Made by a program: the position numbers. A stretch of DNA of 64,000 nt from the NCBI GenBank assembly GCA_963719315.1, contig CAVRBU010000004.1, positions 288,001 through 352,000 on the forward strand, in the 5' to 3' direction. Within the stretch, counting starts at the first letter, position 1, and each line of letters opens with the position of its first letter. Shown one piece after another: positions 45,001 to 54,000 of the stretch. The DNA is from an uncultured Planctomycetota bacterium (GTDB lineage: Bacteria > Planctomycetota > Planctomycetia > Pirellulales > Lacipirellulaceae).

Positions 45001-48000
45001 CCGACGTCACGCCGCCGCTGCCGATGGAGCCGGGGCAGCCGGCGCGACAGGATTACGAATACGAACGGCGGGGAACAGCGAATCTGTTCATGGTCTGCGA
45101 ACCTTTGGCGGGCCGCCGCCGGGTGAAGGTCACCGAACGTCGCGCGAAGGCGGATTTCGCCGACCTGCTGCGCAACATCGCCGACGAGCAGTACCCGACG
45201 GCGGAGAAGATCGTGCTGGTCATGGACAACCTGAATACGCACAAGCTGTCCGTGCTGTACGCGATCTTCCCGCCTGACGAGGCGCGACGGTTGTGGGAGC
45301 GGTTTGAAGTGCATCACACCCCCAAGCACGCCAGTTGGCTGAACATGGCGGAATGTGAATTGTCCGTGCTGGGAAGGCAGTGCCTGGACCAACGGATCGA
45401 TTCCCGAGCCCGCCTGGAGAGCGAAGTTCACGCATGGGAACAACCCCCCCGCAACCAACAACCAGTCCGCGTCGACTGGCAATTCACCGCCGCCGATGCC
45501 AGGATCAAGATTAAACGACTTTATCCCGTACTAGCACCCGTCAACTAAATCGAGACAGACCACTAGGACTGTTAACTCCCGTGGTTGCAATGCCCTTCGC
45601 CGCTCTGGGCGTAGACATGACGTTGAGGTCCGATGGGCGTAGTGCACTGGAACATGGATGCTCGCTCGACATAGGTCCGTGGGAGCATGCCACTCGTCGT
45701 GCGGAACACCTCGGAGCCTTGCTATCGCTCACCCCGATTGCCCGCAAAGTTTCCCCAGACTTCTGGCGCACCCCCGGCCGACCTGCAAAATCGGAAAAAA
45801 ACTCCCTTTCCGTACGACCGTTAGCCGAAAGAACCAATCGGGCAAACTCGCTCGGCGCGTAGAACACAGTGTATCCACGCCGCCCGGTAATGCTCTTTGC
45901 TTGCTCGCTACGGACCGTGACGCGCGAGTTAAGTTCTTGTCCTAGGGGGAAAACAATGCGTAGATTCGTATATTTTGCCGTGCTGGCGGCCACGCTCGTG
46001 CCAGCAGTCACTGCCTCGGCTGAAACAGCCAGCGAAAAGCACGTGGCCCAACAGATCGGAGTCCATCTCAAGCAAAGCGGCCAGTTACACAACTACCGCA
46101 TTGGCGTGAAGTATCACGAAGGCGTCGCATATCTGGCCGGCAGTGTTGCCAACCAGGAGCAGCGCGAGATCGCGGTGCATTTGGCGCAGCAGATGGAAGG
46201 CGTTTCGCACGTCGTCTGCAAGCTCGAATGCGCCGGCGAAAGCGAGCCCGCGCCCAGCAACTTCAAATCGAATGCCGAAGGCGATCGTCCGCAATTAAGC
46301 CAAGAGCTGAACCGCGACTTCCTATGAAGGTGCTCAGAACGATGCCACTGGTGTAATGCAAGCTTACCAGCAGGCAGGAGAAGCGCAAGTCGCTCCGATC
46401 CAACGAAATTCGATGGCCCCGCGCCAAATTGCCCGCCCGTTCGCCCCGCAATCGCGGCGCAGCAACATGCCGGTACCCGCCGGCCGGATGCCCGGCATCA
46501 TGCCAATTGGCCAAAACTGTCCTTCAGGCGTATGCCAAGCCAGTTGCCCCACTTGCAACGGTGGCGGTATGGGTATGGGACCTGCGATGGGCGGCCCAGG
46601 CATGGGCGGAATGGGTGGCGGGCCGGCCCCGGCCGGCTTCGTGCCGAGTGGTTCCGGCCGCGGTCCCAGCTACGACAATCCACAGATGCCCGGTTACGCT
46701 TGGCCCAGCTATGCTTCGTACCCGAACTATGCTGCCTTGTCATATCCGCAGCAGTATTCGCCAACCGCCTGGCCGTACATCGGCCCGTTCTATCCTTATC
46801 CGCAAGTGCCGCTGGCATGGCGGAAGGTTTCGCTGGAATGGGATGACGGTTGGTGGTTCCTCGACTTCAGTGCTCATAATTCGAGCCACTAAAGTTGCGT
46901 AGCAGACGGACGGTGCATACCTCGAACGACAGAAGAAACAAACCCTCGTCGCGAACAAATCGCGGCGAGGGTTTTTCGCGCGCGGTGCTGGCGCTAGCAC
47001 GCCCGACTGACCGTTTTTCCGCCGCAATCGGAAAAACCCGCAAGTTTTCTCCAGTCTAACACGATAACTACGGCTAGCGGTCGTTAGGTACGTTACGTAC
47101 CGCCGCCGCTCGCGCCTCAGCACCACGGACAGTGGCTGTGGCCGCGATCGAGAAAACAAACACTCGCTTGTTGGAAAAGGGACTCGCGATGGCAAGGATG
47201 AAGACCACCGCATTCGGCATCTTACTGGTGACGTGGTCCCTGACCACCACCGGCTGCTTCTGGGGATTCACGACGGGCGGTCCGAGCCTGGGGATCCTGT
47301 CCGTCCCCATTCCAATCAGTCCGTACTTCCAGAACAAGAAAGAAGATCAGTACTGGGAACATGAGCGGTACGATCGCGTGCCGATATTGGGACCGATCAC
47401 ATCCGGCGGACCACCGGTCGCGCTCGATCCGCCGAGCGACGACGAGGTGATGCGAGCCCTCGAAAAAGTGCATCCCGTCCAGAGCGGAATCCCCCTGCTG
47501 TGGGAACGCAACCGCAATCACGTCCACATCGTAAAGTGCAAGATCGCCGATTACGTCGATCCGCCACGGGTGTATCCGCTCATCGGTCCCGCCCAACAGC
47601 ATCACGCTCACTACAAGTGCACCGTTTATTACGAAGACGTCCGCCGTATCGGCTGGCCCGTACCGCACACGCTTCGCGATTTCGAGGCAGAGGAAGTCCT
47701 CTACATCGACCACAACCACTTGCACATGGTCGGCGACGTGGACACCGGTTGCAACGCCAAGTTCTAGGTCTTAAGCTAACTCGCACGCGGAATAGGACAA
47801 GGAGACAAGGAGACGGGGAGACAAGGAGATGCACTTGGGTGCTTTTTCTCCTCGTCTCCTTGCCTCCCGGTCTCCTTGTCTTGCTAACCGAAAGATAGGG
47901 GTTTCATGGCGAGTATGTTATCAATGCTGGCCGCTGCAAACCCGCCAATCCCCACGCGCAGCCTGTTTGAAATGCTGCTCGCTGGTGGGCCTCTCATGTT

Positions 48001-51000: not shown

Positions 51001-54000
51001 AAACTCAATCAATGGCGCGCTAGAACCCTCGCCCTTTGAGATAGGGCGGGGTGAGGGTGCATTGGTCGCTGGTAACTCGCCGCGCAGAAAGCACGACTCG
51101 ATACAGCGTCTAAGCTGCGATGCGTAACCGCACGTGCGGCACAGGCACCGCCACGACCGGGTGCAACTTCAATTGCTGCACGACGAGATGAGTCGCCTGT
51201 TCCAGCGCTGCCGCGGCCAGTTCGGCGAATGCTTTCGCCGGCCACTCCCGGCCAACGAGCTGTGTGGCTTCCTCACGCACGAACGATATCGCGTGGGCAT
51301 GCACGTAACCGCGCAACTCCGCGGCCGACATCCTGACGGTATCCGCGCTGAGCTGCTCCAACGTCGCCTCGACGCTTCGCTCAGCGATTTCGCGGGCCAA
51401 AGTGTCTCTCGGCAAGCTTGCCCGTTGTTTGCGAATGCTAAGCATGATGTCATCCCCCAACTCGCCTGAACTTGACCAGGTTTCCCTAATCGCTTAATTT
51501 TTAAGCAAGTTGGCTGTTGGAAACGGTCGAAACGGTTAGAGTGATTTTGGGTGTACGGCGCCGTAGCCAAGTGGCTAAGGCAACGGATTGCAAATCCGTC
51601 ATCCCCGGTTCGAATCCGGGCGGCGCCTCTAGAAGCCACCTCGGAAACGACGGCGTTTGCGAGGTGGCTTTTTTATTGGCCCCCACCGCCCGACGCAAGC
51701 CCGACTAGTGCTAGCGTTCGCTTCTGCTGAGTGGAGCAATGGTTCGGAGACCGCAGCGCAAGCAATGGACTTCGGCCGGGTGAGCGCACAACTCTCTTGC
51801 CTGCGATCCGGTCCAACGTCTGGCAACTCGCCTTGCGGGAGCTCCGCACCATCAGTATCCTTCGCGGCCTCGTCTCCGCCCTTAACTCTCTTCTCAATGG
51901 GGCGATCGACCGCGAAGGAGAATCGATGGACCGTTCCCACGCTCGAGTTGCTGCCGCAAATCGAATCGTCGCCCTGCTGCTCGCCGCCACGCTGCTCATC
52001 GCGAACAGCGGCTGTCCGGCATTGCTGGCAACCGGTATCTATGTTTGGGAGGGAGGCAACTTTGCCCCGGCCGAATTCGAGGGTCTCAAAGGCCAGCGGG
52101 TTGTCGTGATGTGCAAGCCGCCGTCGTCGCACGAGTACCGGCATGCCGGCGCATCGCGGAACATCTCCGCGCGCGTGAGCGAGCTATTGGTCAAGAACAT
52201 CCGAGACATCGACGTCGTGAACCCGCGCGAAGTCGACAAATGGGTCGACGAAAGTGACTGGGGCGATTTCCGCGAACTGGCTCAAGCCGTGCATGCCGAC
52301 AAGGTCGTGCACATCGAACTAGCCGACTTCGAGCTGTATAAGGGCAAGACGCTCTATCAAGGCCGTGCCGACGTAACCGTCACGGTTTACGACATGAAAG
52401 ACCATAGCAAAGTATTGTGGGACAAACACCTGGGCGAAGTCCTCTACCCGGTGAACAGCGGTATCCCGGCCCAAGACAAGCCCGTACAACAGTTCGAACG
52501 TGAATTCATCGAGATTGTCTCCGACAAAATCGCGATGAGCTTCTATCGCCACGATCCGAACGAGCAATTCGCCATCGATGCCACGGCGAATCGATAGACG
52601 GCGTTGGGTATGAATTACTATTGTAAGTGGGCAGTACAAAGTAGCCTCACGTGCAATCACCGCCTATCGCTTGCGGCTTAGCTTACAATGGCGGCGGATC
52701 GCGGCGCGGCTTCTTCGGAGGGTCCATGCGCTCCGGTTTCGGACGATTCTTATTCCTTTCTGCCCGCGCTAGCCGGCCCCGCACGTCCGTAAACATCTCG
52801 TGCCACTCCCAGCCGAACGGTTGCCGCAGCTCCTTCTCTGCGTCCATCGCCCAGGGAGTGCCCTTGTGATCCGTCACCACACGGGTCAGATACTTCTTCG
52901 CTTCCTCGGCATCTCTTGCCAGGGCGCTGCTCACGGTGACCGACTCAGAAGGCTTGAGCTCCCAAGTGTCGCTCTGCTCTTCTTTAAACTTCATGCCTTG
53001 CTTCGCGATCGCAAGCATTGCATTGTAGCCCTCGGTCCGCACTTTTACGGCCAGCGCTCGGCCGATCGCCAGGTCGAAGCCGGCCTGCCAGCGGGGTGTG
53101 GCGACTTTGTCCCGGTCGCGCTCGCCTTGCCTCAAAATGCCGGACAAGGCCTCGATTTTCGGCTCCAACTTCGCCGCATCCCGCTGCGCGGTGGAAAGCT
53201 CGCGGGCGAATTGGCCATCGTCCACGCGCGGGAACCGAAGTCGCACGTTTTCCATCGGCGTCGTGGCCGAGAGACGCGAAGCCTCGACCAGCGCTGCACA
53301 TGCCTTGTTTGATTTGAGCAACTCGTAATACTGTTTGGCCGACACATAGTCGGGCCGGTAGTTCCGCATCACGCGTTCATCGAAAAACAGCGAGATATAC
53401 GACGACATGGCCGCCGTTTCCCAAGGCTGTACCTTCTTGCCCGATTCCCGATTCGGATGGACCGTGAAATACAGGCCGCCCGTTTCGTACGCCAGTCGGC
53501 TCAGCCCAAACGGACCGAAGCCCGAATCGACCTGTTCCTCGTCCTTGGCCGTGCCGCCGAAGAGCAGCATCAACCGTTCGGGCAGCAGCGATTCCGGCCC
53601 TTGGTGCACCGGCACCTTTTGCGGCGTTTGATCGTACTTCGGGTCCGGATCGACGTATTTCACAAACGCCGTCTCGCGACCAAACGGGGACGGTACGCCG
53701 ATCACGTACACCGGCATTTCATATTTGCGACACACATCCACTGCCGCATCGAGCGCTTGAATATCGTCGCCCGCTTCATCCGTGAACACGACGATCATCA
53801 CGTTCCGCCGCGGCGAAGCCAAACGCTGCATGCGAAACTTGTCGGCCAGAAAGCCAACCGATTCGAACACATTTTCTTTCCCGTCGCCGTTCGGATCGTC
53901 CTCGATGGCACGCACCGCTGCCTTGATCTCCTCCAAATCGGCCGTGGGTTTGGGCGTCAACAACTTCACGGAACTGCCAAACTCCGCGATCGAAGTCAGC

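Follow-up and report, generated by a model that had tools for sequence, protein, structure and literature searches.

We describe a three-gene operon from an uncultured planctomycete of the order Pirellulales (family Lacipirellulaceae), whose products we read, with a probability of roughly 0.6, as a Tol-like transducer of the periplasm that is coupled to a proton motor and bears a head of a new type. The operon lies on the forward strand of a 64,000-nucleotide stretch of contig CAVRBU010000004.1 (positions 288,001 to 352,000; hereafter the window, to which all feature coordinates refer). An exbB/tolQ-like motor subunit of 240 amino acids (47906-48628; PF01618, E 1e-29) precedes an exbD/tolR-like subunit of 145 amino acids (48727-49164; PF02472, E 6e-28; start and stop codons both read), and after a gap of only 9 bases there follows a third gene (49174-51023), which would encode about 616 residues if read through. 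In the assembly this third gene occupies two open reading frames (49174-50310 and 50229-51023), with a frame break at 50209-50211 where one base is short. The reading frames and Pfam families bear out the order of exbB, exbD and split third gene given in the initial annotation, and the three genes form one unit. That annotation also counted five ExbB/ExbD sets in the genome; our count is four exbB-exbD sets, one motAB pair and one long MotA-like gene lacking an exbD.

The third gene product begins with a membrane anchor, which proves to be a two-helix hairpin with a conserved cytoplasmic loop rather than the single TonB-type helix described initially. The first hydrophobic helix (residues ~21-42; 49234-49299; median hydropathy 2.4 across 55 orthologues) is read from its sequence setting as running from periplasm to cytoplasm: the loop that follows is strongly positive (mean 3.5 Lys and Arg against 0.15 Asp and Glu), an acidic stretch lies past the second helix, and in long-form relatives a beta-propeller, placed in the periplasm, precedes helix 1. 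The loop (49300-49335) has the consensus TRWGQSxPLxKC, with T43, W45 and C54 at least 90% conserved. The second helix (49336-49398) carries the S-x3-H motif of a TonB/TolA-like docking helix, reported earlier as 'LSLIVH' and confirmed here, with His62 invariant in all 55 orthologue N-termini and Ser58 present in 54; judged by eye, the anchor consensus departs from the SHLS motif in its L-x3-S half. Residues 89-96 (49438-49461) constitute a candidate beta-strand-like 'motor box', flanked by Gly/Pro/Glu-rich sequence, in which the pattern h-x-h-x-h-h-acidic is kept among orthologues; positions 89, 91 and 93 are hydrophobic in 49, 50 and 45 of the 55 rows, and the acidic residue follows in 36. 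From there a Pro/Ala/Glu-rich linker (49462-49944) extends to the head. Its Pro/Ala-rich character, noted before, holds in the window's gene and in orthologues, whose linkers have a median length of 256 residues (range 134-322, n=42) and contain 17% Ala, 16% Pro and 8% Glu. A recent survey names three N-terminal hallmarks of TolA and TonB, namely a conserved helix motif, a strand that follows it and a linker (Williams-Jones et al., 2025; PMC12204202), and the third gene product has all three as given there.

The C-terminal region (49945-51020) is predicted to fold as a single (alpha/alpha)6 toroid, in agreement with the initial annotation. An AlphaFold2 model of the head of an intact orthologue from the same genus, built with 55 sequences, reached a pLDDT of 90.9 and a pTM of 0.90, and structure comparison gave VIA Z scores of 25.6 to 8paj_A and 24.9 to 1gsz_A over some 290 aligned residues at 18-20% identity. 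The weak Pfam match to SQHop_cyclase_C was found again (E 8.9e-5, residues 259-352), and the same family matches 54 of the 55 orthologue heads. Among solved structures the head comes closest to terpene cyclases, AprG, GH76 mannanases and sugar epimerases. With squalene-hopene cyclase (1gsz) and the single-domain class II terpene-cyclase-like toroids (8paj, 8pak) the head has fold and QW-like repeats in common, whereas the window's protein consists of one toroid on a periplasmic tether. DxDD is the acid motif of squalene-hopene cyclase and of class II terpene cyclases; it is absent from 54 of the 55 heads, the lone D.DD lying at a non-conserved column, and against the hopene cyclase model TIGR01507 (NCBIfam) the score is 19.8 bits, short of the cut-off of 431.1. 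The match to terpene cyclases is one of common fold only and does not imply a common function. Members of the family carry the public names 'squalene--hopene cyclase' (NCBI) and 'outer membrane biosynthesis protein TonB' (JGI); the first is very likely wrong, and database names for this family are misleading.

The association of the third gene with the motor genes is close and widespread. All 61 genomes of the order with at least 90% completeness carry the head domain, with 1-14 toroid matches per genome at E <= 1e-10. The earlier analysis had found an ExbD homologue upstream in 12 of 24 loci; once the upstream DNA was extended to about 5.5 kb, each of 56 orthologue-level loci, drawn from as many genomes of the order, proved to have exbD immediately upstream on the same strand. 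In 55 of them exbB is there too, and in the last the contig ends before that point. The membrane-helix Asp of exbD is invariant in all 56 rows. In two more genomes the toroid gene is cut by a contig end. G018, the sole complete genome without the toroid gene, has no orthologous ExbB either: the best match there (E 1.5e-34, 43% identity) lies in the range of paralogues (~1e-40) and far from the controls (5.6e-96 and 3.5e-82). Elsewhere in the phylum exbD is directly upstream in 16 of 16 fetched hairpin-bearing loci and exbB in 12. A single family within the same class has its exbB apart from exbD and the toroid gene (4/4 loci).

This linkage bears on what we regard as the foremost alternative, that the product of the third gene is an enzyme or binding protein, perhaps for a glycan or lipid, which is tethered to the membrane, faces the periplasm and acts independently of the motor, is merely co-transcribed with it and uses the S-x3-H helix as an ordinary anchor. 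The enzymatic nature of the nearest solved folds is in keeping with this proposal, as are the head's many invariant residues, whether aromatic, acidic or basic, which would fit an enzyme or a binding module equally well. Of 45 paralogous toroid proteins, 37 are without motor genes in the surrounding 5 kb or so, which lends it further weight; on the other side, eight paralogues follow other exbB-exbD sets, and the membrane helix of 42 of the 45 carries S-x3-H. A plain anchor is ill matched to an invariant His within the helix, a conserved strand beyond it and unbroken linkage to exbD, and the joint absence of motor and toroid gene in G018 argues against independence. The heads moreover lack DxDD in all but the one case and have only 7-20% sequence identity to any enzyme. 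We therefore consider a motor-independent enzyme or binding protein unlikely.

Within the motor-coupled reading, we see in the system a planctomycete counterpart of Tol more readily than one of Ton, on the strength of a TolB-like propeller, a CpoB/BamD-like TPR gene and motor genes that lean towards TolQ and TolR. The top NCBIfam match of the exbB product is TolQ (TIGR02796; 97.2 bits, cut-off 221) and that of the exbD product is TolR (TIGR02801; 62.9 bits, cut-off 127.3); both scores exceed those for ExbB and ExbD, and neither reaches the equivalog cut-off. Relatives of the toroid protein in other planctomycete lineages are 1100-1400 residues long and bear the propeller ahead of the hairpin. 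PD40 repeats were detected in all five long forms scanned, AlphaFold2 modelled the propeller part with a pLDDT of 85.4, and a Foldseek search with it returned TolB chains at every listed rank from 1 to 19 (E 7e-11 to 2e-7). The TPR gene, rich in TPR_6 and with a YfiO/BamD-like part, immediately precedes the motor genes at 44 of 57 compared loci. In the window's own genome we found neither the propeller form nor the TPR gene (best tblastn E 0.001).

Tol-Pal genes are ordered tolQ-tolR-tolA-tolB-pal-cpoB. Like TolA, the toroid protein is encoded third after tolQ/tolR-like genes and combines an S-x3-H helix, a strand past the helix and a long linker; its relatives bring two further parts into the unit, a propeller resembling TolB and a TPR gene resembling CpoB/BamD. 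In contrast to TolA it has no domain III (no TolA family was matched in Pfam, and the fold is a toroid), its motor genes fall well short of the equivalog cut-offs for TolQ and TolR, and the operon has no adjoining separate tolB or pal, the long-form propeller being fused ahead of the anchor instead. Neither tolB nor pal was found among the reading frames and Pfam matches of the window, the OmpA-like genes of the genome lie only away from the operon, and no outer-membrane partner gene was linked to the operon in the loci compared.

The second alternative holds that the toroid arm does the work of TonB and energises import across the outer membrane where planctomycetes have neither TonB nor TonB-dependent receptors. 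The window's own genome, which is 90.7% complete, has no TonB_C domain above cut-off (best E 0.48, 13.6 bits) and no TonB-dependent receptor barrel (PF00593) at E <= 1, so that the initial annotation was right on both counts; TonB_C (PF03544) has no Pfam match in either half of the third gene or in the 55 heads. The anchor and linker are TonB-like, the S-x3-H helix, the strand resembling the motor box and the Pro-rich linker being common to both proteins, and both have many paralogues of which only some are motor-adjacent. The multiplicity of toroid matches per genome would suit an import role, as would the CCCP-blocked uptake of dextran into the planctomycete periplasm (PMC5394234). The toroid protein differs from TonB in its extra helix and its lack of TonB_C. 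Against an import role, TonB_C above cut-off and TonB-dependent barrels occur in 26 and 33 of 60 sister genomes, respectively, nearly all of which have the toroid operon. The earlier proposal that the toroid replaces the TonB/TolA head stands as a description of the architecture, which lacks TonB_C, but the coexistence with canonical TonB indicates that the toroid unit is no simple substitute for it. Given in addition the absence of a linked outer-membrane partner gene and the features that indicate Tol, a Ton-type uptake function seems to us quite improbable, and the role of the operon is likely to be housekeeping, in envelope stability or remodelling, rather than uptake through TonB-dependent receptors.

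The closest published parallel is a class of transducers headed by a vWA domain, the only non-TonB head described in the main text and one supplement of the 2025 survey, which the initial annotation had thought might list the toroid family (Williams-Jones et al., 2025; PMC12204202); we found no published description of a toroid-headed motor arm. Both types are encoded behind tolQ/tolR-like genes in PVC bacteria, and a TPR gene frequently lies upstream; both combine a membrane helix bearing the conserved His, a disordered region that includes a strand, a linker and a globular head other than that of TonB. The toroid operon differs in its (alpha/alpha)6 head, its hairpin anchor, the TolB-like propeller of its long forms and its single exbD, where the vWA systems described there have a pair of tolR-like genes.

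The break near 50210 is probably an assembly error, as initially suspected: one Logan contig of a public run (X1; 151 letters, depth 2.5), single and of low depth, has an extra G behind 50210 that restores the frame. Orthologues of the third gene are single open frames of 532-772 residues. That the gene is instead dead in this organism and the locus a decaying remnant is very improbable, for while the assembly reads it in two frames, an IS630-type element lies 2.4 kb upstream and the TPR gene known from other loci is missing from the genome, the frame-restoring base comes from the same kind of sample, both halves retain full similarity to orthologues (the same-genus copy is 76% identical over 258 residues), and an exbD at C2:2130457-2130826 of the same assembly is likewise split between frames, which suggests indel errors in the assembly.

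Taken as a motor-coupled transducer, the toroid unit suggests the following model. ExbB and ExbD, similar to TolQ and TolR, would form a proton-driven motor in the inner membrane, to which the third protein would dock through its second helix, bearing S-x3-H, and through the short beta-strand past it. The Pro/Ala-rich linker, of about 170-320 residues, would span the periplasm and end in a non-catalytic (alpha/alpha)6 toroid gripping a component of the envelope. We infer the contact between helix and ExbB, the movement or pulling of the arm by the motor, and the binding of the head to a partner at the wall or outer membrane. More speculatively, and with little probability in our estimate, the toroid might directly grip a carbohydrate polymer (peptidoglycan, an outer-membrane glycolipid or an imported polysaccharide), such that the motor pulls on a glycan and not on a protein beta-strand; toroid-headed S-x3-H anchors, seemingly several per genome, would then be the general route of proton-motive energy to the planctomycete envelope, one that would also serve the entry of whole polysaccharides into the periplasm, a process sensitive to CCCP.

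Planctomycetes possess an outer membrane and peptidoglycan. The 2025 survey reports Pal to be absent from them (PMC12204202), which raises the question of how their inner-membrane energy is coupled to the envelope. Its occurrence in nearly every sampled genome of the order, together with the propeller-bearing long form in other lineages, makes the toroid operon a strong candidate for the missing Tol-like machine of planctomycetes. The known partners of 5:2 motors would be widened by a second non-TonB head, a hairpin anchor and a propeller-anchor-toroid fusion, the last of which bears on the origin of the cooperation between TolB and TolA, and the operon, His62 and the head provide concrete genetic targets in cultured strains.

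The gene at 49174-51023 (+) directly follows exbB (47906-48628, +; PF01618, E 1e-29) and exbD (48727-49164, +; PF02472, E 6e-28), with nine bases between exbD and its start. We favor, with a probability of about 0.6, the reading that its product is a motor-coupled inner-membrane arm resembling TolA and TonB and ending in a toroid, and that it has a Tol-like housekeeping role rather than one in receptor-mediated uptake. The initial annotation had proposed a motor-driven transducer in which a toroid head replaces that of TonB; the architecture and the linkage to exbD agree with such a transducer, and the takeover from a lost TonB is not borne out across the order. 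The two motor genes of the window score best against the NCBIfam models for TolQ (97.2 bits) and TolR (62.9 bits), with ExbB (61.5 bits) and ExbD (51.7 bits) lower, and all four scores lie far below the equivalog cut-offs. Scanning 47000-51800 for promoters and terminators revealed no signal above that of shuffled sequences. When the periplasmic part of ExbD (residues 40-143, in two copies) was modelled together with arm residues 70-130, the complex scored 0.17, below the mark of 0.32 required for a verdict.

The order of parts is the same in all 55 orthologue N-termini. A short and variable tail (median 18 residues) precedes the first helix, which is strongly hydrophobic; a loop with the consensus TRWGQSxPLxKC, 10-18 residues long, connects it to a second helix bearing the motif L-S-x3-H, in which His62 is invariant (55/55) and Ser58 is found in 54 of the 55 rows. 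The S-x3-H helix described initially is thus retained, and the single membrane anchor becomes a hairpin of two helices in every N-terminus. The interhelical loop averages 3.5 Lys and Arg to 0.15 Asp and Glu, and the 25 residues beyond the second helix have 1.3 and 3.7, respectively; by the positive-inside rule this distribution of charge predicts a hairpin with its loop in the cytoplasm and both ends in the periplasm. About 17 residues past the second helix lies a conserved alternating motif, flanked by stretches rich in Gly, Pro and Glu, with hydrophobic residues at positions 89, 91 and 93 (49, 50 and 45 of 55 rows) followed by an acidic one (36 of 55). For TolA and TonB, Williams-Jones et al. 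(2025; PMC12204202) use the term ‘motor box’ for a beta-strand that is predicted within the disordered region adjoining the helix, and the alternating motif of the third gene matches that description closely. The Pro/Ala-rich linker noted at the outset recurs in the 42 orthologues measured, where its median length is 256 residues (range 134-322) and Ala and Pro make up 17% and 16% of it.

At E<=1e-10 the 264-residue head piece matches all 61 genomes of the order Pirellulales that are at least 90% complete, from 28 families, with 410 matches in total and 1-14 per genome. A single match good enough for an orthologue (E <= 5e-58, 44-76% identity) is present in 56 of the 60 genomes other than our own. 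We fetched about 8.7 kb around each of these 56 and around four paralogue-level hits from three of the other four genomes (G011 twice, G052 and G018). An ExbD gene, earlier seen just upstream in 12 of 24 loci, precedes all 56 orthologues in this wider DNA, always on the strand of the toroid gene, and exbB is upstream in 55, the contig end being reached first in the last. The genes are directly adjacent in 55 loci; in the other, L082, about 2.2 kb separates exbD from the toroid gene. No motor gene was found within about 5 kb at the four paralogue-level loci. As for the remaining four genomes, the N-terminus falls at a contig end in two, and the gene is absent from one fragmented genome and from the complete genome G018. 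The best ExbB match in G018 has E 1.5e-34 and 43% identity, where two control genomes reach 5.6e-96 and 3.5e-82 and have second-best hits near 1e-40; since the toroid gene and an orthologous ExbB are both missing, motor and arm are absent together in this one complete genome. The best 80 of 611 loci come from planctomycete-labelled records, with one from an ‘uncultured bacterium’; the cultured Bythopirellula polymerisocia Pla144 and Botrimarina colliarenosi Pla108 are among the carriers of the head. Outside the phylum, an Atlas cluster of Verrucomicrobiota that combines PD40 with a toroid offers a lead only.

An alignment of 55 orthologous heads, with the intact protein of a same-genus genome as its first row, gave an AlphaFold2 model of high confidence (pLDDT 90.9, pTM 0.90) in which twelve long helices form one toroid, in agreement with the (alpha/alpha)6 fold originally assigned. 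The best PDB matches found with Foldseek are myxobacterial single-domain ‘squalene-hopene cyclases’ (8pak, 8paj), AprG, GH76 mannanases and MstE, with TM scores of about 0.6 and 9-18% identity; with VIA-align the Z scores are 25.6 (8paj_A), 24.9 (squalene cyclase 1gsz), 24.1 (a drimenyl diphosphate synthase), 23.1 (AprG) and 22.6 (7tem, an exported Yersinia protein). Among the 55 heads, the Pfam family SQHop_cyclase_C is recognized in 54 and Pec_lyase in 36, and public names for the family range from ‘squalene--hopene cyclase’ through ‘outer membrane biosynthesis protein TonB’ to ‘hypothetical’. The DxDD motif of class II cyclases occurs in only one of the 55 heads, and the NCBIfam model for hopene cyclase gives 19.8 where its cut-off is 431; the head therefore shares the fold and not the enzyme identity, and a genuine squalene-hopene cyclase is excluded. 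The alignment has 42 invariant columns, many of them aromatic or charged, which would be compatible with a conserved binding pocket. That the toroid protein is a tethered enzyme working without the motor is an unlikely reading; the invariant residues would suit it, and the constant presence of exbD beside the orthologues speaks against it.

The architecture of the arm is shared by paralogues. Besides the orthologues we examined 45 toroid loci, namely the paralogue of our own genome and 44 others of the order, and found a membrane helix before the head in all of them, with S-x3-H in or at the helix in 42. Eight are preceded by other exbB-exbD(-exbD) sets; the same-genus genome has a paralogue behind its counterpart of our set D, whose ExbB is 87% identical to our own. 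Nineteen begin with a four-Cys zinc ribbon; this subfamily (in loci L091-L128) has a cytoplasmic CxCPxCG...CWRCG, about 100-150 residues, the S-x3-H helix and the toroid, and none of the 26 members of the matching tree clade adjoins a motor. The combination of anchor and toroid is thus a family trait, with some copies beside motors and many apart from them, which is the pattern also seen for tonB genes.

We searched a further 150 genomes from across the phylum with a profile of the hairpin region, which matched in 20. In the 16 loci fetched, exbD is directly upstream in every case and exbB in 12. Four are short forms of about 750 residues from one family of the same class, with no adjacent exbB; the other twelve are long forms, eleven complete (1125-1424 residues) and one truncated at a contig end. 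A long form opens with a membrane helix, to which PD40 repeats spanning about 300 residues are joined; behind these come the same hairpin, a long linker and then the toroid. All five long forms scanned contain PD40 (E 5e-8 to 5e-29); a scan of one short form did not detect it. An AlphaFold2 model of the front part from 14 sequences (pLDDT 85.4) matches TolB chains in all Foldseek rows listed between ranks 1 and 19 (E 6.9e-11 to 1.6e-7), with S9 peptidases next, from 7e-7. Taken as periplasmic, a TolB-like propeller ahead of the first hairpin helix agrees with the topology deduced from charge. In a midpoint-rooted FastTree of 116 head domains, using the best head per locus only, the 56 orthologues fall together in a single clade (support 0.94), its sister is formed by the four short forms of the neighboring family (0.97), and a separate clade holds ten of the eleven complete long forms. 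One long form (L136 2502-6773, +) carries a PDZ domain behind the toroid, and in a genome of the neighboring family a class B penicillin-binding protein (L147 398-2521, +; Transpeptidase, E 2e-57) is encoded immediately ahead of exbD and the toroid gene.

In our own genome, an assembly 90.7% complete, neither a TonB_C domain (best E 0.48) nor a TonB-dependent receptor barrel is present, as reported initially. The five ExbB/ExbD sets first counted are corrected to four exbB+exbD sets, besides one motAB and a single long MotA-like gene that has no exbD with it, and only the window set is followed by an anchor-toroid gene. The second toroid protein of the genome (C1:639111-639818; head identity 40%) stands alone, as the earlier account of a paralogue without motor genes had it. 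The second exbD of motor set B (C4:388519-389157) begins with a four-Cys zinc-ribbon-like stretch. At C2:338748-343000 lies a different, unexplained motor cluster, in which a 449-residue MotA/ExbB-like protein has a long tail of coiled coil and no exbD beside it; the proteins encoded after it are large and either Gly-rich or coiled-coil. Among 60 sister genomes, TonB_C exceeds the cut-off in 26, receptor barrels occur in 33 and the toroid operon in 58. The toroid system coexists with the TonB system across the order and is the constant one, and with TonB_C kept in 26 of the 60 sisters a replacement of lost TonB is rejected at the level of the order. A Ton-like role in uptake for the toroid system seems improbable.

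The third gene lies in two frames in the assembly (49174-50310, 378 aa, and 50229-51023, 264 aa, both +), which meet near 50209-50211 and are joined by one extra base. A Logan contig from the public soil metagenome run X1, spanning 50114-50263, has a G inserted behind 50210; it is a single, thin contig of 151 letters at depth 2.5. Orthologues are single frames in 55 of 56 cases, and in the sole split one (L054, from genome G048) exbB is split likewise, as is the exbD of set D in our own genome (C2:2130457-2130826). From the contig, the single-frame orthologues and the split exbD we regard the break as either an error of the assembly or a rare variant, in keeping with the read error first suspected; a programmed frameshift is ruled out by the single-frame orthologues and the extra base. 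That the gene is dead in this organism, as its two frames might suggest, is very unlikely beside the restoring contig.

The gene immediately ahead of exbB encodes a secreted TPR protein, about 970 residues long, in 44 of the 57 loci compared; the one scanned contains TPR_6 (E 5e-59) and a YfiO/BamD-like part (E 1e-27). A search of our own genome did not find this gene (best E 0.001). Because an IS630-type element (44398-45548, +; two overlapping frames with HTH_32, E 6e-15, and DDE_3, E 1e-27) sits at its usual place, the upstream part of the operon may be rearranged here. A secreted BON-domain protein (45869-46327, +; E 5e-12) and a Gly/Pro/Tyr-rich protein of no family (46356-46892, +) follow, and directly upstream of exbB is a 211-residue lipoprotein-like gene (47132-47767, +) that has a signal sequence with Cys, matches no family and is common to this position in 14 of the 57 loci. 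Downstream, a TatA-like gene is found in 35 loci; in the window a tRNA-Cys (GCA; 51557-51629, +) lies 0.5 kb beyond the toroid gene. Convergent with the operon, a 684-residue protein (52683-54737, -) has a membrane helix with S-x3-H (‘SFTVH’) and a DxSxS-like motif, and gave no match with Pfam at E<=10 or in a PDB sequence search. Its nearest Atlas clusters (score 0.99) are planctomycete, with VWA in 44-98% of members, and it is a possible member of the class of vWA-headed transducers published in 2025.

Those vWA-headed transducers stand beside tolQR-like motors in PVC bacteria, and the authors who described them call for more such systems (Williams-Jones et al., 2025; PMC12204202). A term search of the main text and one supplement of that paper found no toroid-type head; a term search of a 2025 planctomycete review (PMC12673574) found no mention of TonB, ExbB or Tol-Pal, and full-text literature searches returned no description of a toroid head on an ExbBD/TolQ-type motor. 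New here are the hairpin anchor, the long forms that bear a propeller, the finding that the system occurs alongside TonB, and the evidence concerning the break in frame.
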